Assembly (NCBI GenBank): GCA_035279785.1
Contig: DATEHC010000017.1
Span: forward strand, 20,695 to 84,694
DNA length: 64,000 bases
DNA from: Candidatus Dormiibacterota bacterium
GTDB lineage: Bacteria > Chloroflexota > Dormibacteria > Dormibacterales > Dormibacteraceae
Reading direction: 5' to 3'
Shown: positions 7,540 to 51,208 of the stretch, piece by piece
Layout of the letters: the number at the start of each line of letters is the position of its first letter
Position numbering within the stretch: position 1 is the stretch's first letter
Translations under genes and position numbers: made by a program
Notes under the pieces: generated by a model
Databases searched by the model: none
Told to the model about the DNA's origin: nothing
What the model saw: only the letters and a program-made list of their open reading frames with translations

Positions 7540-8528
7540 GCCACTTCCGCACCGAGATCGCCGAACAGGTCGAGGTCGCGTCGCGGCTGCTCGACCGTGG
7601 GCCCGATACCGCCGCGAGAATCGCCGATCGGATCCGCGACGCATCGTCGCGCGGGTTCGTGATCGCCGCGCGCGGCAGCTCCGACAACGCCGCGCTTTAT
7701 GCGAAGTATCTGTTCGGTGTACGCAACCGCGCGCTGGTCGCACTGGCCGCGCCATCACTCTTCACGCATTACTCACGGCCGCCGAAGCTGGACGGTCAGT
7801 GCGTGATCGGCATCTCGCAATCGGGCGAGTCGCCCGACGTGATCGCGGTCATCGAGGGTGCGCGCGAGCAAGGCTGCGCGACGGTTGCCATCACCAACGC
7901 GACCACCTCGAAGCTTGCGCGCACGGCCGAGCTCGTGCTTCCGATGGAGGCGGGACCCGAGCTCAGCGTGCCCGCGTCGAAGACCTACACCGCGAGCCTG
8001 CTGGCGATGGCGATGTTGTCGCAGGCGCTCGACCCGGACCCGGACTTCGAGGCCGCGCTCACGACAGTGCCGGCGGCGATCGCGCGGACCCTCGAGCGCG
8101 ACGACGAGCTCGCCGCGCTGGTGCCGCCGCTGCTCGGCCCGCGCGCGGTCGTGCTCGGTCGGGGCTTCAACTTCTCGACGGCGGAAGAGATCGCGCTGAA
8201 GCTCAGCGAGACGAGCTACGTGCTTGCGCGGGCCTGGTCGGTCGCCGACTTCGAGCACGGACCGATCGCGATCATGGAGGCGGGTCTACCGGTGCTCCTC
8301 GTCGACGGTGGCGGCCTCGTCGCGTCCGACCTCGAATCCATTCGCTCGCGCCTCGAATCGAGAGGCTGTTCGGTGCTTCATCTCTTCGACGTCTCGGGTC
8401 TGCCCGAAGAGCTCACGCCCATCCCGCTCGCGGTGCTGGGCCAGCTGCTCGCGCACCAGGTCGCGACCGCGCGGGGCTTCGACCCCGACCGGCCGCGCGC
8501 TATTCAGAAGGTCACGCGGACCTGGTGA
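7536..8528 (+). CDS. SIS-domain sugar isomerase/deaminase (GlmS isomerase-domain-like, NagB-II/AgaS-like)
   Basis: GTGA overlap with the kinase stop. Two SIS repeats ('ARGSSDNAA', 'ISQSGESPD'). Confidence 0.8.
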   Translation: MSHFRTEIAEQVEVASRLLDRGPDTAARIADRIRDASSRGFVIAARGSSDNAALYAKYLFGVRNRALVALAAPSLFTHYSRPPKLDGQCVIGISQSGESPDVIAVIEGAREQGCATVAITNATTSKLARTAELVLPMEAGPELSVPASKTYTASLLAMAMLSQALDPDPDFEAALTTVPAAIARTLERDDELAALVPPLLGPRAVVLGRGFNFSTAEEIALKLSETSYVLARAWSVADFEHGPIAIMEAGLPVLLVDGGGLVASDLESIRSRLESRGCSVLHLFDVSGLPEELTPIPLAVLGQLLAHQVATARGFDPDRPRAIQKVTRTW

Positions 8529-10620
8529 TCGAGCCGCTCTGAAAAGAGGCGGCGGTCGTCGCGAGCGGCACGGTGAACCGAAACTCCGAACCCTCGCCGA
8601 CGGTGCTCTCGACAGCGATGCGGCCGCCGTGCATCTCGACGATCTGGCGCGTGATCGCAAGGCCGAGGCCGGTGCCGATGATCTTGCCCGCATGCTTGTC
8701 CTCGTACCGCTCGTAGCGCCCGAACAGGCGGCTGATGAACTCGGGCGGGATTCCGTTCCCGTGGTCGACCACCGAGACCTCGGCGCACCCGCCGTTGACG
8801 TGCGTGCTCACCTGGATGTCCCCGCCGCGCGGTGAGTACTTGATCGCGTTGTTCAAGAGGTTCGTGAGCACCTGGGTGAGGCGGTCCTCATCTCCCAGCA
8901 CGGGCGGTATCGCGGGCTCGATGTCGACCTGGATGGTGTGGACCTTGGTGGAGACGGCGGCGTGCTCGGCGGCCTCCTTGACCAGCCGGTTGATGTCGAG
9001 CTCCTGGAGGTCGAGCTTTAGCTTGCCGGCCTCGAGGCGGTCGAAGTCCAGCATCTCCGTGATCATCCGGTTCAGGCGCTGCGAGTCGTTGTAGATCTCG
9101 CCGGCCAGGGTTTTCATCTCGCTCGGCTCCATCTCCTGGTCGCGGATGAGCTCGCTGAAACCCTGGATGCCCACAAGCGCGGTGCGGAACTCGTGGCTGA
9201 CCATCGAGACGAACTCGCTCTTCAGCCGGTTCAGCTTCTCCATCTGCGCGAGGTTGGCGGCCGACAGCTCCTCGGCCTCACGTTTCGCCGTCACGTCCTC
9301 GAACGTCGCCATGAAGTAATCGATGGTTCCATCCGGCCTGCGGATCGGCGTGGCGCTCCAGTGCACCCAGAACTGGCTGCCGTCTGCGCGCCTGGCCTGG
9401 CAGTCGGATTCATACGTCTCGGCGGCGCCGTCGCCGACGGTGGGGAAGGACCTGAACACGCGCGAGACGTAATCCTCGGGAAGGAAGGTATCGGTCACGG
9501 AACCGACCAGCACCTGGAGCGGCGCGAGAAGCATCGAGGCCAGTCGCGGGTTGGCGCTGGTGATGCGACGCTCGACGGAGATCGCGGCCACGCCCTGCGG
9601 CGCGTGGTCGATGACGTCGTTGAGCATGGTGTCACGCTCCTCCAGGCTCGCCTGGACGCGCTTGCGCTGGCGCAGCAGCGCCCGAGCCTCCGAACGCGAC
9701 AGGAGGTGGCTCGCGAGCAGGATCGCGGCGAGACCACCCGCCGCGGCGGCGGCGTACGCGGTCATCGGCTGGTGGTTGACCGAGATCACGATCGCGGTGA
9801 GGGCCACGGCGCCCACGCCGACGTACGGGATCAGGTCGGGCCACAGCGGCGGCATCTCGTCGTCGATGGACGTGTTTCCTTCCGGCCATGTCGGGCTCAG
9901 GGCTACGAGGGCGAAGCCGTACGTCGATCCCATGGCCAGCACGGTGCCGAGCGTCGCGGACCCGCCCGTGCCGGCGATGAAGACCGCGCCGCAGTCGGCA
10001 AGAGCGGTGATCGAGAGACCCAGGAGGACCAGGACGATCCGTCCGTCGATTGCCGCCGCGCTTCGGCGCAAGGTCAGCGAGACGGCGGTGAGAAGCGCGA
10101 AGTCGAGGGCCAGCGACGCCGGGCCGATCCACTCCGCCTCCGGGGAGGCAAGCCTGGCGAAGAGCTCGGGCAGCGAAAGAGCGCTGGCGATGAAGACCAG
10201 CGAGAGCGCGATCATCGCCACGTCGAGGGTTGTGCGCCGCGCGGTCGCATACGGATGCGAGCGAGACGGAAACAAGAGCAGGCCGGCGATCGCGGCGGGC
10301 ACCGCGGCCGCCACGCCGAAATCGGCCTCCGAGAGGATTTTCGGGCCGTGGCCGGCGGCCAGGGTGAACGCGGCCTCGCCGGCTTCCACCAGCACCGCGA
10401 TCAGTCCCGACAGCGCCAGCAGAGCCCAGGCTCCGCGGACCTGGCCTGTCGACCTGGACGCGAGCCGACCGCACGTGGCCAGCGCGGCCACGCCGGCGAG
10501 CGCCTGGCCTACGTCTCCGGCGACGTCCGCGGCCTGGCTTTGGCCGCCCGTCGCCACATACGTGGACAGCAGCGCAATGGCGAACCCGGCGAGAATCGCG
10601 ATGACCCAGAAGCGACGCAT
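8512..10620 (-). CDS. Membrane sensor histidine kinase (multi-TM N-terminus, PAS, HisKA, HATPase_c)
   Basis: 702 aa. Hydrophobic N-terminal ~300 aa, a PAS-like segment, H-box 'VSHEFRTAL', N-box 'LLNNAIKYS' and G-box 'GTGLGLAI'. Last gene of the minus-strand signalling operon. Confidence 0.9.
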   Translation of the reverse strand: MRRFWVIAILAGFAIALLSTYVATGGQSQAADVAGDVGQALAGVAALATCGRLASRSTGQVRGAWALLALSGLIAVLVEAGEAAFTLAAGHGPKILSEADFGVAAAVPAAIAGLLLFPSRSHPYATARRTTLDVAMIALSLVFIASALSLPELFARLASPEAEWIGPASLALDFALLTAVSLTLRRSAAAIDGRIVLVLLGLSITALADCGAVFIAGTGGSATLGTVLAMGSTYGFALVALSPTWPEGNTSIDDEMPPLWPDLIPYVGVGAVALTAIVISVNHQPMTAYAAAAAGGLAAILLASHLLSRSEARALLRQRKRVQASLEERDTMLNDVIDHAPQGVAAISVERRITSANPRLASMLLAPLQVLVGSVTDTFLPEDYVSRVFRSFPTVGDGAAETYESDCQARRADGSQFWVHWSATPIRRPDGTIDYFMATFEDVTAKREAEELSAANLAQMEKLNRLKSEFVSMVSHEFRTALVGIQGFSELIRDQEMEPSEMKTLAGEIYNDSQRLNRMITEMLDFDRLEAGKLKLDLQELDINRLVKEAAEHAAVSTKVHTIQVDIEPAIPPVLGDEDRLTQVLTNLLNNAIKYSPRGGDIQVSTHVNGGCAEVSVVDHGNGIPPEFISRLFGRYERYEDKHAGKIIGTGLGLAITRQIVEMHGGRIAVESTVGEGSEFRFTVPLATTAASFQSGSITRSA

Positions 10621-10629
10621 CGCGCGCTC

Positions 10630-10995
10630 CTAGGCGACCATCAGCCGGCTCACCTCTTCGTTGAGAAGGCCGAGGTCGACCGGCTTGGTCAGAAAGCTGT
10701 CGATCCCGCCACCGGCCATGGCGTCGCGGACCTCGTCCGAGAGGTCGCCTGTGAGTGCGATGACCTTGATCGGGTGAAGCATGTGACGCTTGCGGAGGAA
10801 CTGTAAGATCTCGACCCCGTCATACATCGGCATATGGACATCAAGAATTACTAAGTCGAATTCCAACGTCGTCCCCATCTCCAACGCCAGGTTTCCGTCG
10901 GAGGCGGTGGAGACCTCGTAGCCCTTCGACTCCAGGAAGTAGGTCAGGAGCTCGGCGCTGGCGGGATCGTCGTCGGCAACCAGGATCCGTTTCAC
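10630..10995 (-). CDS. Stand-alone response-regulator receiver (CheY-like)
   Basis: GTG at 10995 overlaps the upstream stop (GTGA). 'ILVADDDP', 'DLVILDVHMPMYDG', 'FLTKP'. The longer ORF starting at 11097 overlaps the preceding receiver gene. Confidence 0.85.
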   Translation of the reverse strand: MKRILVADDDPASAELLTYFLESKGYEVSTASDGNLALEMGTTLEFDLVILDVHMPMYDGVEILQFLRKRHMLHPIKVIALTGDLSDEVRDAMAGGGIDSFLTKPVDLGLLNEEVSRLMVA

Positions 10996-11386
10996 TGCGC
11001 CACCAGCCGCTCGCCCGCGGAGGTGCCCGTCAGGTGCTCGCGTACCTGGGCGGTGAATGTCCGCGTGTCGATCGGCTTGGCGATGTACCCCTGACATCCC
11101 GCCTGGAAGGCAAGCTCGCGGTCGCCGCTCATGGCGTGGGCGGTGAGGGCGACGACAGGGATCGCGGCAGTGGCCGGGTCGGCCTTAAGGTCGCGCGTGA
11201 GCGAGAGTCCGTCCTGTCCGGGCAGCTGCACGTCCATCAGGATGAGGTCGGGCGTCAGCTCGCGCGCCGCTTTCCACGCCTCGTCGGCCGAGCCGGCCAC
11301 CTCGACGCGATAACCGTCGAGCTCGAGCACGGCCCGGACCAGGATCTGGTTGGTCTCGTTGTCTTCGACGACGAGGATGAGGTCGC

Positions 11387-11390
<4 letters not shown>
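10992..11390 (-). CDS. Stand-alone response-regulator receiver (CheY-like)
   Basis: TTG start at 11390 overlaps the hybrid kinase stop (TTGA). 'ILVVEDNE', 'DLILMDVQLPGQDG', 'YIAKP'. Confidence 0.9.
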
Positions 11391-13989
<2,599 letters not shown>

Positions 13990-13990
<1 letters not shown>

Positions 13991-15930
13991 CAGGCAGCCC
14001 CCAGGCTCGCGGTCCCGGCGAACTGGTTGATGAAGGCGCTCACGACCTCCGGGTCCCATTGCCGGAGGGCGCCGGCGCGGAGGATGGCAAGCGCCTCATC
14101 CGCGCTCTTGCGCGAGCGGTAGGGACGGTCGTTGATGAGCGCGTCGAACGCATCGCACACGGAGACGATCCGCGCGTGAAGCGGGATTGCCTTGCCGGCG
14201 AGCCGGTCGGGATATCCAGTGCCGTCGAACCGCTCGTGGTGGTGCCGGATGATGGGCAGCAGGGAGGCGCCGGAGCGCAGCGGCGCCACGATGTTCGCGC
14301 CGATGATCGGGTGGAGGCGCATCGCGCCCATCTCGGCGGCGTCGAGCGGACCTGGTTTGAGCAGGATCGCGTCGGGCACGCCGATCTTGCCGATGTCATG
14401 GATGAGGCCGCCGCGGTACAGCGTGTCTTCTTCGGCAGCGCTCAGGCCGAGGCTCGCGCCCAGGCGCCGCGCCGACTCGGCGACGCGCTGCGTGTGTGCC
14501 TCGGTGAAGGGATCCTTGGCTTCGACGGCGGCCGCGAGCGCGAAGATCACTTGCTCGGCGCTGTCGAGCGAGTCGTAGACGCTCTTCAGCCGAAGAGCCG
14601 AGCGGACGCGCGCCACCAGCTCGACCCGGTCGACGGGCTTGGTCATGTAGTCGTCCGCCCCCGCGTCGAGCGCGTTGATCCGGTCGGAGGTGCGGTCGAG
14701 GGCGGTGATCATCACGACGGGGATGAGGTGGGAGGTCGAGCTGGCCTTGATCCTCCGGCAGACCTCGTATCCGTCGATTCCCGGCATCTGCACGTCGAGC
14801 AGAACGAGGTCGGGCGGCGAGGCGTGGATCGCCTTGAGGGCGGCGATCCCGTCCTCGGCGCCGCGGACATGGCATTCGACGCCGGCCAGGCACGCCTCGA
14901 TGAGATCGCGGTTCGCGGCCGAGTCGTCGACCACCAGCACGACCGGAATCCGTGCGGTTGCAGGGAGGCCGCGTGTGGGCGTTGCCGCCTGGATGTCGTC
15001 GCCGCGACGTCCGGGCCATGCGGCCGGCCGGAGCGCAGTGGCGAAAGCGACCGCTGACGGGAAGCGGTCCTCCGGGCGCTTGGCGAGCGCCTTGCGCAGG
15101 ACCTCCTCGACGTGGGCCGACAGCTCGCCCTTCAGCTCGATGGTGGCGGGCATCGGCTTCGTGACGTGCGAGAGGAGCGTGGCTGCGGGCGTGTCGCACT
15201 CGAAGGGCACGCGCCCGGTCAGCATCTCGTAGGCGACGATCGCGAGCGAATACAGGTCGGACGGGGGGCCCATCGGCTCGTCCGCCGCCTGCTCGGGGGA
15301 CATGTACTCGGGCGTCCCCATGACCGTGCCCGAGCTAGTCATTCGCCGGTGCTGGCCCGTCATGAGGGAGAGGCCGAAGTCGGCGAGCACCGGCGTGCCG
15401 TCGTCACGCAGGAGGATGTTCGACGGCTTGACGTCGCGGTGGAGAATGCCGTGCGCGTGCGCGTGGTCGAGGGCGCTCGCCAGCTGCTCGACGACCGGGA
15501 CGACCTCCTGCAGCTCCAACGGCCGGCCGACGCGGTCGGCCAGCGTTCCGCCTCCGACCAGCTCGAGCACCAGGTAGGCGATCCCGTCGTCGTAGCCGTA
15601 ATCGAAGACCTCGAGGATGTTCGGGTGCTTGAGCCTCGCCACCGAGCGAGCCTCCTGTTGGAAGCGCTGGCGGTAATCGGGGTCGTCGGCGAAGAAGTCG
15701 GGCAGGACCTTGACGGCGACGTACCGGTCGAGGGCGGGGTGGTAGGCGCGGTAAACGGAGGCCATGCCCCCGCGGCCGATCTTCTCCATGACGCGGTACG
15801 GACCGAGGGTCGTGCCCTCGCGGAGGTTCACCGGAGCCAGCCGAGGAGGGCCGCGATCGAGACGACGGCGGGCAGCGCCAGCGCAGACGTGGAAGCCGCC
15901 AGGACCATGGCGGCCGCGACCGCCCGCCAA
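13990..15930 (-). CDS. Ser/Thr protein kinase - receiver - HD-GYP phosphodiesterase fusion protein
   Basis: Hanks kinase motifs 'GRGGMASVY', 'VAVKVL', 'HRDVKPSN', 'DFG', 'GTPEYMSPE'. Receiver 'VLVVDDS...LLDVQMPGIDG...YMTKP'. HD-GYP 'HDIGK' and 'HHERFDGTGYP'. Alternative GTG start at 15831. Confidence 0.9.
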
Positions 15931-16100
15931 GGCGTTTCTTCAGCTTCCCGCTGCTGCTCCGCCGCTACCCAACCGGCAAGATCGTCCACGTGACCGTAAC
16001 CACTCTCCCTGTGAGTTGCAGCGTAAGAAGCATTTACTTAGCGGCACCCCTCTCAGGCGGGCCAATTCACTATCCGATCGGGTAGTTCTGTTAACCCAAC

Positions 16101-16118
16101 CTGATCAAACTGATCAAA
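16101..16118. repeat. Tandem 9-mer CTGATCAAA x2 (two TGATCA palindromes)
   Basis: Direct read. The second copy contains the LuxR-type gene's stop codon. Lies in the intergenic region upstream of the kinase operon. Confidence 0.8.
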
Positions 16119-17781
16119 GCCATCCCTGCTTGGCCGCCTCGTGGGCAAGCTCGGTTCGGTTCGAGGAGCCGGTCTTCTGCAGGATCTGGCGGACGTGAAA
16201 CTTGACCGTGTTCTGGCTGAGGTGGACCCGCGCGGCGATCTCGCGGTTGGTCAGGCCTTCCACCGCCAGGCGCATGATGTCCGATTCGATCCGGCTCATG
16301 TCCAGCGGCGGGCGCTGCGGGCGGGGCGCGACCTGGCCGGTCCGAACGTGGCGCAGGCGCTCCTGCATGGTCGCGCTGTCGATGGCCACCGCGGCGACGC
16401 TGCCGAGGGCTTCGAGGAAAGACAGCCACTCCTGGTCGGGGTTGAGCGCAGAGCGGTGGAACACCTCCAGCGCTCCGAGCAGCTTTCCGCGGCTGATCAG
16501 GGGGACGGCGCCATAGGCCTTGAAGCCCTCTCGGGCGAACAGCGACCGACGGCGAAACTGGGAGAACGCGCTCAGTGCGGTCACCGTTTCGATGCGCCGG
16601 CTGGCCACCACGTTCCCGGGTATCGACTTCTGGTCGTCGACCGGGAGGCGGTAGTCGGGCACCGAGGTGGCCAGGAAGCCGGTGCTGGCCGACAGCGCCA
16701 GCGTGTTGTCGGCCTCATCGAGAAGGAGCACGTCGGCCGCGTCGACTCGCAGCTGCGAGGTGACATGGTCGAGGATGACCTTGAGCGTGAGCCGCAGGTC
16801 GGGGCTGGCGCTGACGGCAAGGCTGACGCTCTGCAGCGCGGTCAGTCGCTCCAATCGCTTGACCGCATCCTCGTAGAGCTGGGCGTTCTCGACGGCCAGC
16901 CCGGTACGGTCCGCGATGGCCTGGATCCAGGTCACGTCTTTCTCCGTCAGCGGATTCGAGCTCCTCTTCTCGACCAATCCGAGGGCGCCGATCGTGGCGC
17001 CGCGCGCGCGCATCGGTGCGAAGACGATTCCAAGGCGGGTGCCGGCCGGCATCCACGGATGGCGCTCCATGTAGCTCCGTACGTCCTCGTTGAGCCGGTC
17101 CTTGAGTTCTTCCAGGGTGAGGTCGGGAAGGAACATCGCCTGCCCTGTCTCGATCACCTCCGAGGCCACCGGTGATACCTCCCTCCGGCCGGCGACGCGC
17201 ATCGCCTCGGCGTAGGTGTCGGCGTAGTCCGGCTGGTCCTCGTCGGCGGTGACGAAGAGGATGTCGGCGGGGTCTTTGCCCATCAGCGCCGCGATCCATA
17301 CGCCCGGACGCAGCCTGCTGAGCGCCTTCGTGACGGTGGTGAGGATGGCGCGGGGCTGCAGGCGGGCCCCGGCGAGCTGGTCCGTTACCTCGTCGACGAT
17401 GTGATCGCCCGTGGAGCGCGTGGTGACACGGCTTCGGGTGATGAGGTAGGTGACGTCGGTGAGGTTGGCGACCGCGCCGCCGGCCTCGGGGACCACGTCG
17501 ACCTGGAGCCAGACGTCGGCGCCGTCGCTCCGGCGGGCTCGTACGAGCGCCCCCCGGATCGGCTGCTCGCTGCGCAGGCAAGCGATCGCCGGATGAACGG
17601 TGATCGGCCCCTCGGCGGACTCGATCATCAGCCACCCGGCGTCCTCGGCGCGAGACCCGATGAGGTCCTCCGCCTCCAGCCCCAGCGTGTCGAGCGCGGC
17701 CCGGTTGGCTTCGAGCACCACGCCGTTGCTGTCATAGACGACCACGGCAGCCGGGACGTTGTTAAGTGAACCGGGGACCAA
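16114..17781 (-). CDS. PAS-GAF-GAF-LuxR (HTH) transcriptional regulator
   Basis: 555 aa. PAS-like N-terminus, two GAF-like regions, and a C-terminal LuxR HTH 'LTNREIAARVHLSQNTVKFHVRQILQKTG'. TTG start. Confidence 0.85.
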   Translation of the reverse strand: MVPGSLNNVPAAVVVYDSNGVVLEANRAALDTLGLEAEDLIGSRAEDAGWLMIESAEGPITVHPAIACLRSEQPIRGALVRARRSDGADVWLQVDVVPEAGGAVANLTDVTYLITRSRVTTRSTGDHIVDEVTDQLAGARLQPRAILTTVTKALSRLRPGVWIAALMGKDPADILFVTADEDQPDYADTYAEAMRVAGRREVSPVASEVIETGQAMFLPDLTLEELKDRLNEDVRSYMERHPWMPAGTRLGIVFAPMRARGATIGALGLVEKRSSNPLTEKDVTWIQAIADRTGLAVENAQLYEDAVKRLERLTALQSVSLAVSASPDLRLTLKVILDHVTSQLRVDAADVLLLDEADNTLALSASTGFLATSVPDYRLPVDDQKSIPGNVVASRRIETVTALSAFSQFRRRSLFAREGFKAYGAVPLISRGKLLGALEVFHRSALNPDQEWLSFLEALGSVAAVAIDSATMQERLRHVRTGQVAPRPQRPPLDMSRIESDIMRLAVEGLTNREIAARVHLSQNTVKFHVRQILQKTGSSNRTELAHEAAKQGWL

Positions 17782-17834
17782 ACCAGGCCGAATTATGGTG
17801 GCGGAAGTGAGCGGCCTCTTAAATTAAGCCCACT

Positions 17835-18143
17835 TTGGTCACCGTTCGGGCAGCGCGTTCAGGAGCGGGCGCCGGCCGTGGCCCCGGCTATGGATGGACG
17901 AGCCACGTGACAGTCGACCGGCATGGCCGCCGCACCGAGTACACAGTGACGATCTCGCCCGCTTCGATGGCGCGCTGGTCGGTAGGCTCCGAGCTGAAGG
18001 ACGTCGAGGACCTGGTCCGCCGGAGCTTCGAGTTTCTGCTCGAACGGGAGTCGCCGAGCTCGATACTGCCGCAGTTTGAGCTGTCGGTTATCGAGACCTA
18101 CTTTCCGGAGTACGACGAGCTGATCAGGAGTAGTCGAGGCTAG
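17835..18143 (+). CDS. Hypothetical small protein
   Basis: High third-position G+C from about 17907 onward. GTG at 17907 is an alternative start. No family recognised. Its 3' end overlaps the convergent DUF899 gene by 20 nt. Confidence 0.45.
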   Translation: MVTVRAARSGAGAGRGPGYGWTSHVTVDRHGRRTEYTVTISPASMARWSVGSELKDVEDLVRRSFEFLLERESPSSILPQFELSVIETYFPEYDELIRSSRG

Positions 18144-18819
18144 GTCCCCAGGTCTTCCCGCGACCCTCGGGCGTGCGGTCGAGCATCGACCAGAGGGGCC
18201 ACATGAAGTCGACGTGGCGCCGATCCTGGCCCGGGTCCTGATCCGCGAACCACAGCTCACTCGACCAGAAGTGACGGATCTTCTTGCCGCGCTTCGTGAA
18301 GACGTGCGCTAGCGGCCACTGCTGGCCCGTCTCGTCCTCGGCCAGGTAGTCGCGGTTGAATTCGTTGTTCGCGGAAGAGAGCAGCAGGGCGTGCGACCAG
18401 CCGCGCCGTCGCGCATGCTCGCGAAAGCGCGTGATCGGGGCTTTCGCCACCACGACGAAGTTCGCGCGCTGGACGAAGTGGCGCGCCGCGCCGTCGACCG
18501 CGTCGATGATCGAAGTGCAGCTCGGGCACGGGGTCATCGAGCCGATGCGCTCCGGGTACATGAAGTTGTAGAGGAAGAGGCTCTTCTTGCCGGCGGCGAA
18601 CAGCTCCGAGAACCGAATCGACCTGTATTCGTCCTCGCCCGGCGCCCAGGCGTCGAAGGCGTAGTCCACCTTCACGAGTCCTCCGAGCGGCAGGGCCCGT
18701 CGCCGCTTCGCCACCTGCTCTTCCTGACGCCGGAGCTTGAGCTCATCACGCAGCAGGGCGTTGCGTGCGCGCCGGTACTCCGGGGTCTCGCCGGGGAATC
18801 GATTTGCTGTTTTCGCCAT
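18124..18819 (-). CDS. DUF899 thioredoxin-like family protein
   Basis: 231 aa. N-terminal 'FPGETPEYRRARNALLRDELKLRRQ' and a 'CPSC' motif are typical of DUF899. Confidence 0.8.
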   Translation of the reverse strand: MAKTANRFPGETPEYRRARNALLRDELKLRRQEEQVAKRRRALPLGGLVKVDYAFDAWAPGEDEYRSIRFSELFAAGKKSLFLYNFMYPERIGSMTPCPSCTSIIDAVDGAARHFVQRANFVVVAKAPITRFREHARRRGWSHALLLSSANNEFNRDYLAEDETGQQWPLAHVFTKRGKKIRHFWSSELWFADQDPGQDRRHVDFMWPLWSMLDRTPEGRGKTWGPSLDYS

Positions 18820-18882
18820 TGAGACATTGTCAAACGTCCGTCACATACGGTGCATAGGGTGCTGGCTACGATGGAGGTTCAG

Positions 18883-19569
18883 ATGGCCGCGCCGATCCTG
18901 GTCGTCGACGACGATCCCAAGATCGTCTCGCTGGTGAAGACATACCTCGAGCGGGAAGGATTTCGCGTGGTCGCGGCGGCCGACGGACGCTCGGCGCTTC
19001 GGGCCTTCAACGATTTCGATCCAGGCCTGATCGTGCTCGACCTGATGCTCCCCGAGCTCGACGGGCTCGCGCTGATGCGCACCATCCGCGAGCGGTCGAA
19101 CGTGCCGATCGTGATGCTTTCGGCGCGGGCGCAGGTCGCGGACCGCGTCTTCGGGATCCATGAGGGGGCCGACGACTACCTAGCCAAGCCCTTCTCCCCG
19201 GCGGAGCTTGTCGTGCGCGTCAAGGCCGTCTTGCGACGTGCGCGCAATCCGCGGCCGCAGGCGCGCGGTGTCATCGAGCATGGCGATCTCGTCATCGACC
19301 TGGATCGCGTGGAGGTCCGGCGCGAAGGTCGTCCGATGCCGCTGACGCCGGCGGAGTTTCGTCTGCTGACCGCCCTGGTGCAGGCGGGCGGTCGCGTCCT
19401 CAGCCGGCAGGCGCTGCTCGACTCGCTCTACGGCGAGGCGCAGGGTGAGGCACTGGAGCGCACGATCGACGTCCACATCGGGCGACTTCGCGACAAGCTC
19501 GGCGAGGACGCGATCGCGCCACGCTACATCGTCACGGTGCGCGGGTCGGGCTACCGGGCCGTGGCCTGA
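18883..19569 (+). CDS. OmpR-family response regulator
   Basis: ATG at 18883 lies 5 nt after GGAGG (the ORF opens at 18850). Receiver 'ILVVDDDP...LDLMLPELDG'. Winged-helix 'LTPAEFRLL...VDVHIGRLRDKL'. Confidence 0.9.
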   Translation: MAAPILVVDDDPKIVSLVKTYLEREGFRVVAAADGRSALRAFNDFDPGLIVLDLMLPELDGLALMRTIRERSNVPIVMLSARAQVADRVFGIHEGADDYLAKPFSPAELVVRVKAVLRRARNPRPQARGVIEHGDLVIDLDRVEVRREGRPMPLTPAEFRLLTALVQAGGRVLSRQALLDSLYGEAQGEALERTIDVHIGRLRDKLGEDAIAPRYIVTVRGSGYRAVA

Positions 19570-19576
19570 GCAATCG

Positions 19577-20647
19577 ATGCGCGCGCTGCGCAGTCTCGCG
19601 ACTGGCATCACCTTCGTCTCGGTCGTTGTGGCGTGGGTCGCGATCGCCGTCATCACCGTGGGGGTGATGGTGGTGGCGCAGTCGACATTCGACCGCCTCA
19701 TGGTCCAGGCCGGGTCATCCGCCGTCGTCGCGCACGCGATGTTCGACCACGGCGTGACCACGATCCTCGCCATCGCGGTCCTGGTCGCCCTGGCGATAAG
19801 CGTCGCCCTTGCGATCGCACTTGCTGCGTGGCTGGCGCGGCCGCTGCGCGAGATGGCGGGCGCCGCCGAGCGGATCGCGGACGGCGACTACTCGACACGC
19901 GTGCCCGGAGGCGGGCCGACCGAGCTCGCCTCGCTCGCGCACTCCTTCAATCGCATGGCGCAGAGCCTGGCCGAGCAGGACCAGGAGCGCACCGACTTCA
20001 TCGCGAACGCGGCGCACGAGCTGCGCACGCCCCTGACCAATCTCCAGGGTTACCTCGAGGCTCTGCGCGACGGGGTGATCGCGCCTACGCCCGAGCAGTT
20101 TCACTCGCTGCACGAAGAGGCCCAGCGGTTGGTGCGACTCTCGCGCTCGCTCGAAGCCCTCGCTGTCAATCGCAGGGCAGAGGAGGTCGGGCGCTGCGAG
20201 AACGTCGACGTCGCCCAGGCCATCCGATCCGCGTACGAGGTGGCGCGGCCCGCGTTCGAGGCCAAGGCGATCGACGTCGACGTGCTGCTGCCCGACCGGT
20301 TGATGGTGGTGGCCGAGCCGGATGGATTGGCGCAGGTCCTGGCCAACCTTCTGCAGAACGCCTCGCGCTACACGCCGCAGGGCGGCAGCGCGGCGATTCG
20401 TGCGGCGGGCCGGCGCTCGAACGTCGTCGTCAGCGTCTCCAACAGCGGCGACGGCATCCCCGCCGGCGACCTGCCTCACGTGTTCGAGCGCTTCTACCGG
20501 GTCGAGAAATCGCGAGATGCCGCGCGAGGGGGCGCCGGCATCGGGCTCGCGATCGTCAAGCAGCTCGTCGAAGCATCGGGTGGTCGGGTCGGCGTCCACT
20601 CTGACGGCCGGCTCACGCGTTTCTGGTTCAGCCTCCCCGCCGCCTAG
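19577..20647 (+). CDS. HAMP-domain sensor histidine kinase
   Basis: ATG at 19577 within ORF 19445..20647. Two TM segments, HAMP, H-box 'AAHELRTPLT', G-box 'GGAGIGLAIV'. Confidence 0.9.
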   Translation: MRALRSLATGITFVSVVVAWVAIAVITVGVMVVAQSTFDRLMVQAGSSAVVAHAMFDHGVTTILAIAVLVALAISVALAIALAAWLARPLREMAGAAERIADGDYSTRVPGGGPTELASLAHSFNRMAQSLAEQDQERTDFIANAAHELRTPLTNLQGYLEALRDGVIAPTPEQFHSLHEEAQRLVRLSRSLEALAVNRRAEEVGRCENVDVAQAIRSAYEVARPAFEAKAIDVDVLLPDRLMVVAEPDGLAQVLANLLQNASRYTPQGGSAAIRAAGRRSNVVVSVSNSGDGIPAGDLPHVFERFYRVEKSRDAARGGAGIGLAIVKQLVEASGGRVGVHSDGRLTRFWFSLPAA

Positions 20648-41755: not shown

Positions 41756-42535
41756 ATGACGCGCTACAGCCCGCTGCTGTCGATCTTTGTCCTCGCCCCC
41801 CGACTGCGGCGCGCGTCGAACCGCGCGGTGAGCATCTTCCTGCCCGCGCGCTCGGAGGGCTACGACGCCCGCTTCTACGACATCGAGTTTCGCGACCTGC
41901 TGCACCGCTACTCCAGCAGGCTGGGCCCGAAGGACCGCGAGTTGATGGAGTACGAGATGCGGCGGCTGCGTCACCACGTCGCGGTCGTGCGGCCGGCGGG
42001 CTGCCCGGCGTTCGCGGGTTTCGCCGACGAGCCCAAGGGAGTTCTCGAGCTCGTCAAGCTTCGTGATGAGACGGACGAGCGGCTCGAGGTGGGGGAGCTG
42101 CTGCTCGCCCCGGTGATGCGCCAGCTGGAGCACCATCCGCCCGCGCTCATCGCCGTCGTCGACAAGGAGCACGCGCGGACTTTCGGCGCGATCCTCGAGG
42201 ACATCATTCCGCTCGACGAGGTCAATGGCGCGGAGGTTCGGCATTCGCGGGCCGGTGGCACGTCGGCGCCGAGCAACCAGCGCAAGGCGGACAACCGCGC
42301 CAAGGCAAACCTGGAGACGGCCGTGAAGACGGTGGAACGCGAGATGAGCTCCGGCGCCTACATGCACCTGTATGTCGCGGGGCCGGCGGAGGCGCGCACG
42401 ACCTTCGAGCGCCTGCTGCCCGAGCGTTTGAAGAAGACGATCGCCGGCCATCTGAGCGCGTCGCTCGACTCGGCGGTCCTCAGGCGCGAGCTGCGCGAGA
42501 AGATGGCGGCCGCAGAACGATCTGCGTCTGGGTGA
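41756..42535 (+). CDS. eRF1-fold protein, bacterial Vms1/Ankzf1-like (baeRF) family, short form
   Basis: 259 aa. 'LIAVVDKEHARTFGA', 'RAGGTSAPSNQRKADNRAKANL' and 'LYVAGPAEARTTFERLLPERL' parallel the 'VV.DR..A', 'KPGGWSQxRYQRxxE' and 'LVVAGdvRa...LP' blocks of bacterial eRF1-like proteins. This was recognised by eye only. Confidence 0.6.
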   Translation: MTRYSPLLSIFVLAPRLRRASNRAVSIFLPARSEGYDARFYDIEFRDLLHRYSSRLGPKDRELMEYEMRRLRHHVAVVRPAGCPAFAGFADEPKGVLELVKLRDETDERLEVGELLLAPVMRQLEHHPPALIAVVDKEHARTFGAILEDIIPLDEVNGAEVRHSRAGGTSAPSNQRKADNRAKANLETAVKTVEREMSSGAYMHLYVAGPAEARTTFERLLPERLKKTIAGHLSASLDSAVLRRELREKMAAAERSASG

Positions 42536-46627: not shown

Positions 46628-48394
46628 GTGGAGTTCACGACGCGGCCGGAGCTCAAGGGCACGTTCGGCGTCGTGAGCTCGACCCACTGGCTGGCCTCGC
46701 AGTGCGCGATGACCGTCCTCGATCGCGGCGGCAACGCGTTCGACGCGGCGGCGGCCGGCGGCTTCGTGCTGCAGGTCGTGGAGCCGCACCTCAACGGCCT
46801 GGGTGGCGAGGTACCGATCGTGCTCTGGGATGTCAGCCGCGGACACGCTGAGGTGATCTGCGGCCAGGGACCGACACCCGCGGCGGCCACCATCGATCAC
46901 GTCGGCAGCCTTGGCCTCGCCGAGATCCCCGGCACCGGCCTGGTCGCGGCGTGCGTGCCCGGAGCGTTCGGCGGCTGGATGACGCTGCTTCGCGACCACG
47001 GCACGTGGAGCCCGGGCGACGTGCTCAAGTTTGCGATCGCCTATGCCGAGTCGGGCTATCCCCTTCTGCCTCGGATCGCAGCGGTGCTGCAGGTCGTCGA
47101 GCCACTTTTTCGCGAGCACTGGCGCTCGTCCGCCGCCGTGTATCTGGAGCGCGGCGTGCCCCAGCCCTGGCAGCTGTTCCGAAACCACGACCTGGCCTCG
47201 ACCTATCGGCACCTCGTTCGTGCGGGCGCCGAAGCGGGAGGCGGTCGCGAAGCCCAGATCGATGGAGCGCTGAGCGCGTTTTATTCAGGGTTCGTCGCCG
47301 AAGCCGTCGAGCGTCACAGCCGCGCTGCGGTGATGGACAGCTCCGGCGAGGAGCATCCGGGATTCTTGGCGGGAGCGGACATGGCCGCGTTCGACGCCCG
47401 ACATGAAGACCCCCTCGTCACCGACTTTCGGGGATGGTTCGTGGCGAAGTGCGGTCCCTGGAGCCAGGGCCCGGTGTTTCTGCAGCAGCTGCGACTGCTC
47501 GATGGATTCGATCTTGCGTCGCTCGGATTTCTCTCCGCGGAGCACATCCACCTCGTCACCGAGTGCGCAAAGCTGGCGTTCGCCGACCGCGAGGCGTGGT
47601 ACGCGGACCCCGATAAAGCGACGGTCCCGATCGATGCACTCCTCTCGCGCGAGTACGCAAACGAGCGACGCACGCTGGTCGGCGATCGCGCATCGCTCGA
47701 GCTGCGGCCGGGGTCGCCCGGCGGCGAGCAACCACGTTTGCCGAGGCGCGAGCCACAGGCGATCGAGCCAGGTCACTGGACCGGCGGTGGAGCGCAGTCA
47801 GTCGGCGCCACCACGCGAGGCGACACGTGCCACATCGCCGTCGCCGACCGGCACGGCAACATGGTCGCCTGCACGCCGAGTGGGGGATGGCTGCAGAGCT
47901 CGCCGGTCATCGAGGGTCTCGGCTTCTGCCTAGGCACGCGCGCGCAGATGTTCAACCTCGATCCCGAGCATCCCAACCGGCTCGACGGCGGCAAGAGACC
48001 GCGCACGACCCTCAGCCCTACGCTCGCTCTTCGCGACGGCGAGCCGAGGCTCGCGTTCGGCACGCCCGGCGGCGATCAGCAGGACCAGTGGACGCTCGAG
48101 TTCTTCCTGGCGCACACAGTATTCGGCCTCGGGCTCCAGGCCGCGATTGACTCGCCGATGTTCCACAACTCGCATTTCGCGAGCTCCTTCGCGCCCCACG
48201 ACGCTCACCCGGGCCGCCTCCACAGCGAGCCGATGGCCGCGGGCGTCCTCGACGGGTTGCGCGCTCGCGGACACGAGGTGATCGAGGCCGAGCCCTGGTC
48301 CCTTGGACGGACCTGCGCGGTGGGAAGGGAGGACGGCGTCCTTGGGGCCGCGGCCAATCCTCGCGGCGGGCAGGCTTACGCGGTCGGGCGCTAG
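46628..48394 (+). CDS. ggt: Gamma-glutamyltransferase family protein
   Basis: 588 aa. 'VSSTHWLASQ', 'GGNAFDAA' and the nucleophile context 'GDTCHIAVADRHGNMV'. GTG start 1 nt after the upstream stop. Confidence 0.9.
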   Translation: MEFTTRPELKGTFGVVSSTHWLASQCAMTVLDRGGNAFDAAAAGGFVLQVVEPHLNGLGGEVPIVLWDVSRGHAEVICGQGPTPAAATIDHVGSLGLAEIPGTGLVAACVPGAFGGWMTLLRDHGTWSPGDVLKFAIAYAESGYPLLPRIAAVLQVVEPLFREHWRSSAAVYLERGVPQPWQLFRNHDLASTYRHLVRAGAEAGGGREAQIDGALSAFYSGFVAEAVERHSRAAVMDSSGEEHPGFLAGADMAAFDARHEDPLVTDFRGWFVAKCGPWSQGPVFLQQLRLLDGFDLASLGFLSAEHIHLVTECAKLAFADREAWYADPDKATVPIDALLSREYANERRTLVGDRASLELRPGSPGGEQPRLPRREPQAIEPGHWTGGGAQSVGATTRGDTCHIAVADRHGNMVACTPSGGWLQSSPVIEGLGFCLGTRAQMFNLDPEHPNRLDGGKRPRTTLSPTLALRDGEPRLAFGTPGGDQQDQWTLEFFLAHTVFGLGLQAAIDSPMFHNSHFASSFAPHDAHPGRLHSEPMAAGVLDGLRARGHEVIEAEPWSLGRTCAVGREDGVLGAAANPRGGQAYAVGR

Positions 48395-48719: not shown

Positions 48720-48735
48720 ATAGGCCGCAGCCTAT
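48720..48735. promoter_or_regulatory. Palindrome ATAGGC-CGCA-GCCTAT overlapping the ArsR-type start codon (candidate auto-operator)
   Basis: Perfect 6-bp arms read directly. A related 10-mer TATAGGCTGC at 48666-48675 matches TATAGGCCGC at 48719-48728, 53 bp away. Confidence 0.4.
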
Positions 48736-49717
48736 GCCAGCCAGCAGCGAAGCCGCCAGGCCACAGATCCAGGTCGCGATCTCCGCGCCGATCGAGCTGA
48801 TGTGGCTGATTCACTGGGCGGGAGCTGGACACTCGCACGGAGGCACGTATGCCGAGCTCGACGAGCTGCGCCTCCGCCGAGGCCCGGAGCTGGAAAAGCT
48901 CTCGGGCGAGCGGCTTGCCCAGTACTCGACCGAGATGCTGGTGCTGGCATTTCGCTCGGGGACGTTGATGGACCACGACCTGAAGCGATTTTTCGGCCGG
49001 ATCGAGGCCGCCATCGACGACGCTCGTATGCCGTCTCTTCTTTCCGAAAGCCCGAGGGAGCGCGAGATCGTGCACGAGCGCCTCGAGCGAATCCGTTCCG
49101 ACAAAGCATTCAGGAGGCGCTACGTGGACCTCCTACGCGCGATCTGGTCGGACATGGAGCCCGAATGGGAGAGGACCGGGCGACAATCGGCGACCGCGGA
49201 AGCGCAGCGATGGGAGCGGGCTCTTGAAGCGGGAACCACTTATCGCCAGATACTCCAAGTCCAGCAGATCTGGCCGCCGAGGCCGGAAGCCGACACATTC
49301 GCCGACGCCGCCGCGGTCCAGGGGAATCTCACCCTTACCCCGGCCTGGTTCGGCGGCAAGATCCACATCCTCGAGTTCGACGGCCGCGTGTACGTCGGGC
49401 GCGGCATGCGCCTGGGTGAGCCGTCGTTCAAGGAGGTGGCGGTCGAGGTGTCGGCGCACATCAAGGCCCTCGCGGATCCGACTCGCCTCGCCATCCTGCT
49501 GCGTCTGGCGCGCGATCCCGCCTCCGTCACCGAGATTGCCCGCCAGTTCGACCTCTCGCAGCCGACCGTGAGTGCGCACGTCAACGTTTTGCGTCAAGCG
49601 GGCCTGCTCGAGGAGAAGACGGTCGGCCGCAGCGCTCAGCTGAGCGCTAGCAAGGACGGTGTCCGCCGGCTGTTCGCCGACGCCGAGGAGTCACTGGTCC
49701 GTGCCTTTCGCGCCTAG
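48734..49717 (+). CDS. ArsR/SmtB-family transcriptional regulator with large N-terminal domain (DUF5937-like)
   Basis: C-terminal HTH 'LADPTRLAILLRLARDPASVTEIARQFDLSQPTVSAHVNVLRQAGLL'. The ~230-aa N-terminal domain is typical of DUF5937-ArsR proteins. Confidence 0.8.
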   Translation: MPASSEAARPQIQVAISAPIELMWLIHWAGAGHSHGGTYAELDELRLRRGPELEKLSGERLAQYSTEMLVLAFRSGTLMDHDLKRFFGRIEAAIDDARMPSLLSESPREREIVHERLERIRSDKAFRRRYVDLLRAIWSDMEPEWERTGRQSATAEAQRWERALEAGTTYRQILQVQQIWPPRPEADTFADAAAVQGNLTLTPAWFGGKIHILEFDGRVYVGRGMRLGEPSFKEVAVEVSAHIKALADPTRLAILLRLARDPASVTEIARQFDLSQPTVSAHVNVLRQAGLLEEKTVGRSAQLSASKDGVRRLFADAEESLVRAFRA

Positions 49718-50320
49718 CTCGGCGTTCACCCTCTCGACGACCTGTTTCAAAACCTCGTAGGGCTGCGCGCCCAGCACCAGGTAACGCCGGCCGAAGACGT
49801 GCGCGGGAATCGCGTTGATCCCGACCGACGTCGCGACCCTGCGATCTTCGTCGATGATCGCGGCGTAGCGATCGTCGTCGACGGCCTCACGCAGGTCAGC
49901 GCCGTCGAGCCCGACAGTCTCGCCGATCCGCACGAGGTCGTCGACGTCCTCGAGCTTGCCGGTTCCCTCCCAGTGCGCCTTGAAAAGGGCGCGGTGCATC
50001 TCTTCGAAGCGGCCCTTCTCACGCGCGAGCTCGGCGGCGCCAAGGGCGCGTCGCGAGTTGATGATCACGTCGCGCGTGCGCATCTCGAGGCCGACCGATT
50101 GCGCGACCGACTGCATGTACGAGCGCATCTGGTCGGAACGAGAGCGTCCGAAATACGCCTCGCGTGGGATCCCTTCGGGCGGCGCCTCGGGATGCAGCTC
50201 GTACGGCCTCCAGGTGACGTGGACGAGTCCCTCGCGCTCGAGCTGCTCGACTCGAACCGAGTCGATGTAGCACCAGGGTCAAACGTAGTCGGAGAAGATC
50301 ACCAGGTCCACAGCTTCCAT
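49691..50320 (-). CDS. DsbA/FrnE-like thiol:disulfide oxidoreductase with in-frame TGA at the first redox Cys (candidate selenoprotein, otherwise a pseudogene)
   Basis: The frame of ORF 49691..50128 continues upstream to ATG 50320: MEAVDLVIFSDYV-TGA(50279-50281)-PWCYIDSVRVEQLEREGLVHVTWRPYELHPEAPPEG. This is the family 'D..CPWCYI' motif with TGA in place of Cys. There are no other stops or frameshifts in 209 codons. The C-terminus 'GINAIPAHVF...LGAQPYE' is DsbA-like. Confidence 0.6.
50247..50265 (-). promoter_or_regulatory. SECIS-like hairpin 13 nt downstream of the in-frame UGA
   Basis: mRNA UCGACUCG-GUU-CGAGUCGA forms a perfect 8-bp stem with a 3-nt G-initiated loop. The stem starts 13 nt after the UGA. 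Confidence 0.4.
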
Positions 50321-50428
50321 GAGGACGTCTCTAAGCATCCCTTAACGAGGCGGTGGCAGAATGAAGTCGAGGGCGAAAGGGACCCTGAACGTGAACCCGG
50401 GAAGCTCGGAATTCAGGAGGTAATGCCC

Positions 50429-51208
50429 ATGGCAGACGCGAAGACGTTCGTCATCGATGCACCCGTTTGGATCGACCTTTCGAGCACCAATCCGGCGAAG
50501 GCTCGGGAGTTCTACTCGAAGCTGTTCGGATGGGATGCCGAGCCCGAGAAAGACCCGGCCGCGGGCGGCTACGCGATCGCGAGGCTCGCCGGGAAAGACG
50601 TGGCGGGCATCGGCGGCACCCAGGACCCGAACGCACCGTCGGCGTGGATGGTGTACATCGGCACCAAGGACGCGGCCGCGCTCGCGAAGAAGATCGAGGC
50701 GGAGGGCGGCAAGGTGGTCGCGCCTCCGTTCGACGTGATGGACGTGGGCCGCATGGCGGTCTTCCAGGACCCGAGTGGTGCATTCATCTCGGCGTGGCAG
50801 CCGAAGTCCATGAATGGCTTCGAAGTCATGCGCAGGGCCGGTGCCTATTCGTGGGCGGAGCTGAACTCACGCGGCTTTGACAAGGCGGAGAACTTTTACA
50901 AGAAGGTGTTCGGCTGGACGACGAAGAAGAGCCCGATGGGCGAGGGTCAGCCCGAGTACACGGAGTTCCAGCTGAGCGGCGAGAGCATCGCCGGCGGCAT
51001 GGAGATGAACTCGATGGTGCCGAAAGAGGTCCCGTCCTATTGGACCGTCTACTTCGGCGTGACCGACGTGGACAAGGCCTTCGGGAAGGCGACAGGCCTC
51101 GGGGCGACGGAGATGGTTGCGCCGCAGGACTTCCCGGGCGGCCGGTTTGCGCTCCTGTCAGATCCGACGGGCGCGATGTTCGGCCTCCTGACGACCGACC
51201 AGAGCTGA
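50429..51208 (+). CDS. Two-domain VOC (glyoxalase/bleomycin-resistance) family protein
   Basis: ATG at 50429 lies 8 nt after AGGAGG. It has two repeats of the 'FY..vFGW...' VOC module. Confidence 0.85.
   Translation: MADAKTFVIDAPVWIDLSSTNPAKAREFYSKLFGWDAEPEKDPAAGGYAIARLAGKDVAGIGGTQDPNAPSAWMVYIGTKDAAALAKKIEAEGGKVVAPPFDVMDVGRMAVFQDPSGAFISAWQPKSMNGFEVMRRAGAYSWAELNSRGFDKAENFYKKVFGWTTKKSPMGEGQPEYTEFQLSGESIAGGMEMNSMVPKEVPSYWTVYFGVTDVDKAFGKATGLGATEMVAPQDFPGGRFALLSDPTGAMFGLLTTDQS

Follow-up and report, generated by a model that had tools for sequence, protein, structure and literature searches.

The 64,000-nucleotide stretch of Candidatus Dormiibacterota DNA considered here as a whole (the window; contig DATEHC010000017.1, positions 20,695 to 84,694) carries on its minus strand a gene for a DsbA-like oxidoreductase of the FrnE type, in which an in-frame TGA takes the place of the codon for the first Cys of the CxxC active-site motif and is followed by a hairpin with the properties of a selenocysteine insertion sequence (SECIS). 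From comparison with its relatives the locus is very probably a real selenoprotein gene, with UGA-encoded selenocysteine (Sec) at the position of the active-site Cys and with both codon and hairpin conserved across soil Dormibacterota, a widespread uncultured phylum whose members are described as aerobic. The elements on which the argument turns are the following.

49691 to 50338, minus strand: predicted selenoprotein coding sequence, FrnE-type DsbA-like oxidoreductase (translation, Pfam DSBA, match to FrnE structure 5CNW).
50282 to 50320, minus strand: stretch preceding the UGA, which codes for beta-1 (..DLVIFSDYV), a strand of the thioredoxin fold (in-frame conservation).
50279 to 50281, minus strand: in-frame UGA, probably read as Sec, residue U14 when counted from the ATG at 50320 and first residue of U-P-W-C (conservation, FrnE alignment).
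50266 to 50278, minus strand: spacer of 13 nt between UGA and hairpin (CCCUGGUGCUACA), covering the codons of P-W-C-Y plus one base, the first of an Ile codon (78 orthologs).
50247 to 50265, minus strand: putative SECIS hairpin (78 orthologs, RNAalifold, codon usage).

Translation of the minus-strand frame from the ATG at 50320 gives 210 codons, closing at the TGA at 49691-49693. Thirteen codons (MEAVDLVIFSDYV) lead to the TGA at 50279-50281, the sole internal stop, after which the frame continues with PWCYIDSVRVEQLE. A mechanical list of open reading frames (ORFs) gives only the C-terminal 145 residues (49691-50128), since past that TGA no start codon occurs before 50128. A preliminary description of this DNA had recognized that the ORF track holds only this C-terminal part, that the frame extends upstream through the TGA and that it contains no further stop or frameshift, all of which agrees with the translation, no other lesion being present in the 209 codons. 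Its choice of the ATG at 50320 as the start stood only in part: this ATG does open the frame, but the real start is probably, on sequence grounds, the ATG at 50338-50336 (MLRDVLMEAV...), which lies 18 nt upstream, directly behind an in-frame TAA-GGG. The MLR start is common to several close relatives, and the closest one, L001, has the MLR start alone. The coding sequence comprises 215 codons from the ATG at 50338, or 209 from the alternative ATG at 50320, from which the residues are numbered in what follows.

The conservation of the TGA was determined at the DNA level in two collections. GTDB species, each represented by a single genome, were searched with a query limited to the peptide past the TGA; this yielded 80 loci with 63-83% protein identity, nearly all of them bearing the label Candidatus Dormi(i)bacterota or belonging to early ‘Chloroflexi bacterium CF_’ soil metagenome-assembled genomes (MAGs). 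In 79 of the 80 loci the codon preceding P-W-C-Y is TGA, with an in-frame (V/I)FSDYV before it. The remaining locus (L033) also has TGA, but then CC-TGG for CCCTGG (3547-3552), i.e. a 1-nt deletion in the CCC run that causes a frameshift and is due to either an assembly error or a genuine inactivation. The TGA is thus carried by all 80 species-level genome loci. A scan of JGI metagenome contigs with a pattern that allowed TGA, TGC or TGT and left the hairpin unconstrained gave at least 120 matches; among the matches listed, TGA was found in 120 of 120 contigs, and neither TGC nor TGT. Taken together, the 80 genome loci and the 120 metagenome contigs listed have TGA in 200 of 200 DNA copies.

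These counts bear directly on a first alternative, that of a pseudogene with a recent TGC-to-TGA nonsense mutation, or of a sequencing or assembly error in one genome. A one-base change from TGC would be sufficient to produce the sequence, and gene callers do treat TGA as a stop, but the same TGA is found in 80 independent species-level genomes and in all the listed metagenome contigs, which derive from many samples and assemblers; there is no other lesion in the 209 codons, and the sequence to either side of the TGA is under purifying selection (see below). Copies of one contaminant are excluded by the divergence of the loci, which are 63-83% identical with a dS (synonymous divergence) of about 1.1. 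The probability of this alternative is therefore negligible. The single-base nonsense mutation that the preliminary description had kept as its alternative is ruled out by the TGA counts, whereas its view that the gene is not a decaying pseudogene is upheld by the conservation of the TGA and by the purifying selection on either side of it. Close relatives carrying TGC and lacking the hairpin, which it had named as the finding that would speak to the contrary, are clearly not what is seen: TGA is present in 80 of 80 loci and the hairpin in 78 of 78 orthologs with a full reading frame.

The distribution of the loci brought two side observations. Copies with 70-82% identity lie on contigs of the SMAG catalogue (L002, L018, L036, L058, L061 and L080) that are labelled Acidoferrum, Verrucomicrobiia, Solirubrobacteraceae, Micrarchaeaceae archaeon and Nitrosopolaris; mis-binning of Dormibacterota contigs is the most likely reason, rather than transfer. 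One MAG, CTOTU41299, contains two Sec-DsbA copies on separate contigs (L045 and L071, with 69% and 70% identity to the query), which could be paralogs or the result of a mixed bin.

At the protein level, a collection of 5.8 billion proteins was searched, and two sets of homologs were considered, the best 120 for the window protein and the best 120 for one entry, P0046 (SRC source, ERR1700682_3280644). Among these 240 listed homologs, all except P0046 cover at most 90% of the query, with typical lengths of 166-194 residues (range to 200), and each sequence inspected starts past the TGA. Such coverage and lengths are typical of cases in which gene callers meet a stop and begin again at a later start. 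P0046, a singleton, is the sole full-length entry with Cys at the Sec site among the 240; when it was used as the query, only truncated Sec-type relatives were returned among the 120 best. Recorded as protein only, it may represent either a real Sec-to-Cys reversion or an assembly artefact.

The codon analyses were carried out with the 78 orthologs for which a full reading frame could be extracted. For the ten codons upstream of the TGA, the ratio of non-synonymous to synonymous divergence (dN/dS) was 0.22 at a dS of 0.54 (estimates in the 0.17-0.22 range, with dS approx. 0.5), near the value of 0.19 for the gene body, which indicates that the upstream segment is selected as protein in the same frame. 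This segment is kept in frame in all loci, with synonymous variation. Past the TGA, P-W-C-Y is invariant as protein while its codons vary synonymously. By taking into account that initiation at 50128, the first start codon past the TGA, would cost the protein 64 residues, with beta-1, the redox motif and alpha-1 among them, these comparisons show that a functional domain would require translation to continue across the lineage-conserved UGA.

The same data allow one to weigh a second alternative, namely that the locus specifies two products, a short peptide that stops at the UGA and a DsbA-domain protein that is initiated internally and so lacks its N-terminus. In the databases, almost every entry is indeed annotated as the truncated form (166-200 aa). 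However, the annotated starts vary between entries and no internal start is conserved, the loss of the redox motif and of the flanking secondary structure elements just described would follow from a start at 50128, and the invariance of P-W-C-Y, which lies between the TGA and the annotated starts, together with the match of the upstream FSDYV to beta-1 of the family, speaks for a single chain; two products are, thus, highly improbable. That this lineage reads UGA as a sense codon throughout its genomes has next to no likelihood. Reassigned UGA codes exist in some bacteria, but TGA is the terminal stop of the window gene itself and of 60 of the 78 orthologs, its use as an ordinary terminator implying that UGA is not reassigned, and the ORF structure of the 67% G+C window is normal under translation table 11.

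Codon usage immediately around the UGA is also skewed. The codon at position −1 is GTT in 68 of 78 orthologs (87%) as opposed to 8% in the gene body, and that at position +1 is CCC, again in 68 of 78 (87%), as opposed to 29%. The bias flanking the UGA (50279-50287 and the corresponding positions of the orthologs) points to a constraint of sequence context on the putative recoding event beyond the hairpin.

The predicted hairpin consists of a 5' arm at 50258-50265 (UCGACUCG), a GUU apical loop at 50255-50257 and a 3' arm at 50247-50254 (CGAGUCGA), so that the perfect 8-bp stem with a GUU loop 13 nt past the UGA, which had been noted from the window sequence at the outset, is borne out. UCGACUC(G)-loop-(C)GRGUCGA is found exactly 13 nt past the UGA in 78 of 78 full-frame orthologs, with calculated dG values from −7.2 to −10.4 kcal/mol, and the 120 metagenome copies listed agree with it. 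The conserved core is a 7-bp stem with a G-GUY-M loop. The spacer has the same 13-nt length in all 78 orthologs, with few synonymous variants and with the base following the UGA always being C. The proportion of synonymous differences (pS) at codons 13-18 is 0.07, the deepest minimum in the gene, compared with approx. 0.58 across the gene. Codon choice within the hairpin departs accordingly from that of the same genes: Ser is encoded by TCG in 99% of cases versus 52% in their own usage, Arg only by CGA, CGG, AGA or AGG (100% versus 39%, CGC being dominant elsewhere) and the second Val by GTC (100% versus 50% elsewhere), with a joint expectation for these choices of 0.036 per independent lineage. 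The variants that are observed keep the pairing: the Arg codons yield a U-A or U-G pair, a rare C-to-T change gives G-U, and AGR codons convert the closing G-C pair to loop, leaving 7 bp with a GGUCA loop. With 30 diverse sequences, RNAalifold returned the 7-bp hairpin as the only consensus structure. Additional outer pairs (a lower stem) were suggested by the minimum free energy (MFE) fold of the single sequence, but they were not supported by RNAalifold and were discarded.

The published description of bacterial SECIS elements (bSECIS; PMC13188914, Fig. 2A) specifies a loop of 3-9 nt on an upper stem of 4-16 bp, a G in the first two loop positions (N1-G-[G/U]-N-N2), a distance of 16-37 nt from the UGA to the loop and an MFE not above −7.5 kcal/mol. 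Every variant observed here pairs either 8 bp around a 3-nt loop or 7 bp around a 5-nt loop. The loop is G-GUY-C/A in 77 of 78 full-frame orthologs, and the lone variant, CGUGC, keeps G at position 2. The distance from the UGA to the loop is invariant at 20-21 nt (the 13-nt spacer plus an arm of 7-8 nt). The MFE is −10.4 kcal/mol in the window and at or below −7.5 kcal/mol in 77 of 78 orthologs, the remaining one being at −7.2 kcal/mol. The comparative data thus show the predicted hairpin to behave as a bacterial SECIS at the right distance past the UGA, and the suggestion that it is SECIS-like gains support from its presence in all 78 orthologs, the freezing of its synonymous sites and the agreement with the bSECIS description, despite the ordinary fold of the single sequence discussed below.

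For the analysis of the protein family, Cys was placed at the TGA in the Pfam scan of the window protein. The DSBA model (PF01323) matched residues 6-194 of 209, thus spanning the TGA (E=1.1e-31; 110.6 bits against a cut-off of 25.6). The closest solved structure is that of Deinococcus radiodurans FrnE (5CNW/5CP1; E=1e-19, residues 4-201), followed by Streptomyces coelicolor SCO1869 (3GL5; E=6e-18, residues 7-197). In the residue-by-residue alignment the TGA lies opposite Cys22, the first Cys of the FrnE CPWC motif, in keeping with the position at the first Cys of CxxC initially assigned to it, and the upstream FSDYV corresponds to beta-1 of the FrnE family; this strand begins at residue 4, pairing with FrnE residue 12, with no N-terminal extension. 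U-P-W-C conforms to the CP(W/F)C active site of the FrnE subfamily (cd03024), with Sec for the first Cys. The only Cys of the window protein is C17, and the chain stops at residue 209 without the C-terminal CxxxxC regeneration motif of the subfamily. This tail is present in many FrnE homologs, but some lack the motif (PMC8945050), so that its absence does not bar membership in the FrnE subfamily. No NCBIfam model claims the window protein: the top match, NF041057 (Rcas_1661 family thioredoxin-like (seleno)lipoprotein), is a partial, C-terminal one that scored 45.1 bits against a cut-off of 190, and the protein is not a member of that family. It can be stated with high confidence that the predicted product is a (probably cytoplasmic) thiol/selenol-disulfide oxidoreductase of the FrnE type within the DsbA family, whose nucleophilic active-site residue would be encoded by UGA.

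With these assignments, a mechanism can be proposed. During translation the hairpin would present an apical G-U, at positions 25 and 26 from the U of UGA, to the Sec-specific elongation factor SelB, which would bind the hairpin and, competing with RF2, bring Sec-tRNA(Sec) to the UGA; the outcome would be a full-length protein of approx. 209-215 residues in place of a peptide of 13-19 residues. In the protein, U14 and C17 may alternate between an intramolecular selenenylsulfide and the selenol/thiol state, with the Cys pair of FrnE as the model for such cycling, and may thereby reduce or isomerize disulfides of partner proteins or small molecules. Because there is no other Cys and no FrnE-like CxxxxC tail, the recycling of the U14-C17 centre would call for an external reductant.

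Several results weigh against the selenoprotein assignment. None of the 7 stem pairs shows a compensatory double change, so that the hairpin-compensating changes among orthologs that had been proposed as a check were not seen; one-sided wobble changes occur at 2 pairs and the stem is otherwise near-invariant. The RNA structure is, therefore, deduced from frozen synonymous sites and from changes limited to wobble. In addition, the window sequence alone folds unremarkably for 67% G+C DNA (z=−1.36, with 21 of 200 shuffles as good), so that a single sequence cannot establish a SECIS and the significance comes from the comparative data only. The search for the Sec machinery covered the window and approx. 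1.6 Mb of dsbA-linked DNA, which is largely one syntenic neighbourhood, as compared with genomes of several Mb. Using approximate E. coli SelA, SelB and SelD sequences as probes, tblastn found no selA, selB or selD in the window and the 80 loci, nor in a further 688 kb, and ARAGORN found no tRNA-Sec, and indeed no tRNA at all, in the window and all loci. Neither was a SelA, SelB or SelD domain present in the Pfam-annotated ±10 kb contexts around the dsbA entries on long contigs. Since this DNA is mostly one syntenic neighbourhood, these negatives are uninformative and the machinery is to be regarded as unverified, not absent. Finally, a search of the accessible literature found no paper linking Dormibacterota to selenocysteine, the papers that name both these bacteria and selenium doing so only incidentally. 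BSepDB may already include such genomes.

That no Sec machinery was found in the DNA covered is a point in favour of a further alternative, in which the UGA is decoded without the Sec pathway, in a lineage without selABCD, through hairpin-stimulated near-cognate read-through (inserting Cys or Trp) or an unknown recoding factor. UGA-C terminates weakly. This context is invariant across the orthologs, and a gene for a bacterial eRF1-like protein is found repeatedly in the surrounding region, as detailed below. However, the hairpin agrees in every respect with a bSECIS of the SelB type, with the apical G-U at the canonical distance (PMC13188914; PMC8659212), and the UGA sits at the exact Cys position of the Sec/Cys exchange documented for the DsbA-like family (PMC1088965). 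Insertion of Cys would be achieved more simply by a TGY codon, which would be expected to appear, whereas 200 of 200 listed copies have TGA, and absence from approx. 1.6 Mb of linked DNA says little for genomes of several Mb. Decoding without Sec is, on balance, very unlikely, and the UGA is most probably, by the comparative criteria applied here, a genuine SECIS-directed Sec codon. The early proposal that a U-P-W-C selenoprotein is plausible has gained support from the conservation of the TGA, the purifying selection upstream of it, the hairpin and the FrnE alignment.

A more far-reaching proposal is that Sec may be functionally irreplaceable at this site and that the FrnE-like enzyme may be a principal reason why Dormibacterota keep Sec decoding. 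It stems from the presence of TGA in all 200 listed copies, with no verified reversion to Cys across a phylum-level radiation in which synonymous divergence is saturated, but it is a speculative one, rather unlikely to hold as a whole. A variant of it, with genomes devoid of selABCD and the UGA recoded by another mechanism, is less likely still.

No further selenoprotein gene emerged. When the 1.6 Mb were screened for other TGAs in frame that combine a redox motif with a SECIS-like hairpin, the candidates were all shadow-frame artefacts; a stricter screen limited to the window gave only gene junctions, no Rfam family matched within the window, and nothing else related to selenium is encoded in its 64 kb. 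Reading the UGA as Sec would restore the active site to entries annotated as truncated ‘DsbA family proteins’ without a catalytic motif (239 of the 240 listed), and it implies that Dormibacterota decode selenocysteine and hold at least one selenoenzyme under strong selection, with a bearing on selenium needs in attempts at their cultivation. If true, the retention of Sec in Dormibacterota, described as aerobic, would run against a stated trend, namely that aerobic bacteria rarely retain selenoproteins (PMC13188914). The compact, near-invariant SECIS (7-8 bp, G-GUY loop and fixed 13-nt spacer) may also be a handy lineage-specific model for finding more selenoprotein genes.

The genes around dsbA in the window include the following.

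50429 to 51208, plus strand: two-domain glyoxalase/VOC-family gene, divergent from dsbA (Pfam PF00903, two stretches).
48734 to 49717, plus strand: 327-aa gene with a C-terminal ArsR-type helix-turn-helix (HTH; residues 246-294), convergent with dsbA (Pfam HTH_20, HTH_5).
46628 to 48394: gamma-glutamyltranspeptidase gene (Pfam).

The glyoxalase/VOC gene is the most conserved neighbour: of the 75 loci that extend far enough upstream, 44 have it next to dsbA in divergent orientation, and it appears also in the ±10 kb contexts; it shares with dsbA an intergenic region of approx. 90 bp (50339-50428) and is followed by a DUF1801 gene in 28 loci. The 3' end of the ArsR-HTH gene overlaps that of dsbA by 27 nt, and the gene is found near dsbA in 21 of 72 loci; Pfam matches are confined to the last approx. 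80 residues of its 327-aa product, the N-terminal 240 being unannotated. In many orthologous loci a Peripla_BP_2 (PF01497) gene encoding approx. 274 residues lies downstream of dsbA on the same strand (L082, 10504-11328; L083, 10540-11373; L205, 10513-11337; L211, 10537-11364), which is not there in the window. A 4-nt overlap with the dsbA stop in L082, L205 and L211 suggests that, where overlapping, it is a co-translated partner of dsbA. A gene for a bacterial eRF1-like protein (baeRF_family10, PF18854, E=4e-15) is located at 41756-42535 on the plus strand of the window and recurs in several species, always 4-10 kb away from dsbA (L083, 16833-17609; L205, 14034-14804; L207, 18907-19689); nothing ties it to UGA recoding other than the shared neighbourhood. 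Farther away, at 8512-20647, the window contains a dense signalling block with a PAS-histidine kinase, a hybrid kinase with two receiver domains, a Ser/Thr kinase-receiver-HD fusion, a PAS-GAF-LuxR regulator and an OmpR-type two-component pair.

Among characterized proteins, FrnE (DR_0659), a cytoplasmic disulfide reductase/isomerase of the DsbA family, resembles the window protein in the xPWC motif, in the lack of an N-terminal extension and in the conserved cis-Pro region (I/V-P). It differs in having Cys where the window protein would have Sec, overall sequence similarity is modest, and FrnE uses its C-terminal CxxxxC tail to regenerate the active site (PMC8945050), while the window protein ends approx. 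40 residues earlier. SCO1869 shares the FrnE-type architecture, but it is a Cys form of uncharacterized function. With respect to the RNA element, the SECIS of the E. coli fdhF type is also a hairpin in the coding region, located 11 nt past the UGA as opposed to 13 nt here, and its G23 and U24, contacted by SelB (PMC8659212), have their counterparts in G25 and U26 of the window hairpin. Unlike it, the window hairpin is a perfect stem of 7-8 bp: its 5' arm has no bulged U, and the consensus fold does not extend into a conserved lower stem.

The closest known system is, however, a selenoprotein family. A DsbA-like protein (COG2761, UxxC) was recognized as such in Sargasso Sea data in 2005 (PMC1088965), DsbA-like selenoproteins were later found in several Deltaproteobacteria and Firmicutes (PMC1794560), and a 2026 review lists a DsbA-like form 1 (PF01323, UxxC), with Asgard archaea among its hosts (PMC13188914). 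Sec/Cys exchange at the CxxC motif of DsbA-like proteins, invoked from the beginning as an established pattern, is documented by these reports. The window gene has every sequence-level feature of DsbA-like form 1: both belong to PF01323, with Sec for the first Cys of CxxC, a bSECIS in the coding region past the UGA and widespread Cys homologs. The kind of protein and its mechanism are thus already known, and the novelty lies in the lineage and in how far the predicted Sec form has become fixed. Known hosts of form 1 are marine metagenomes, Deltaproteobacteria, Firmicutes and Asgard archaea, whereas the clade of the window is Dormibacterota and, unlike form 1 as described so far, has the predicted Sec form essentially fixed in all 200 listed DNA copies.

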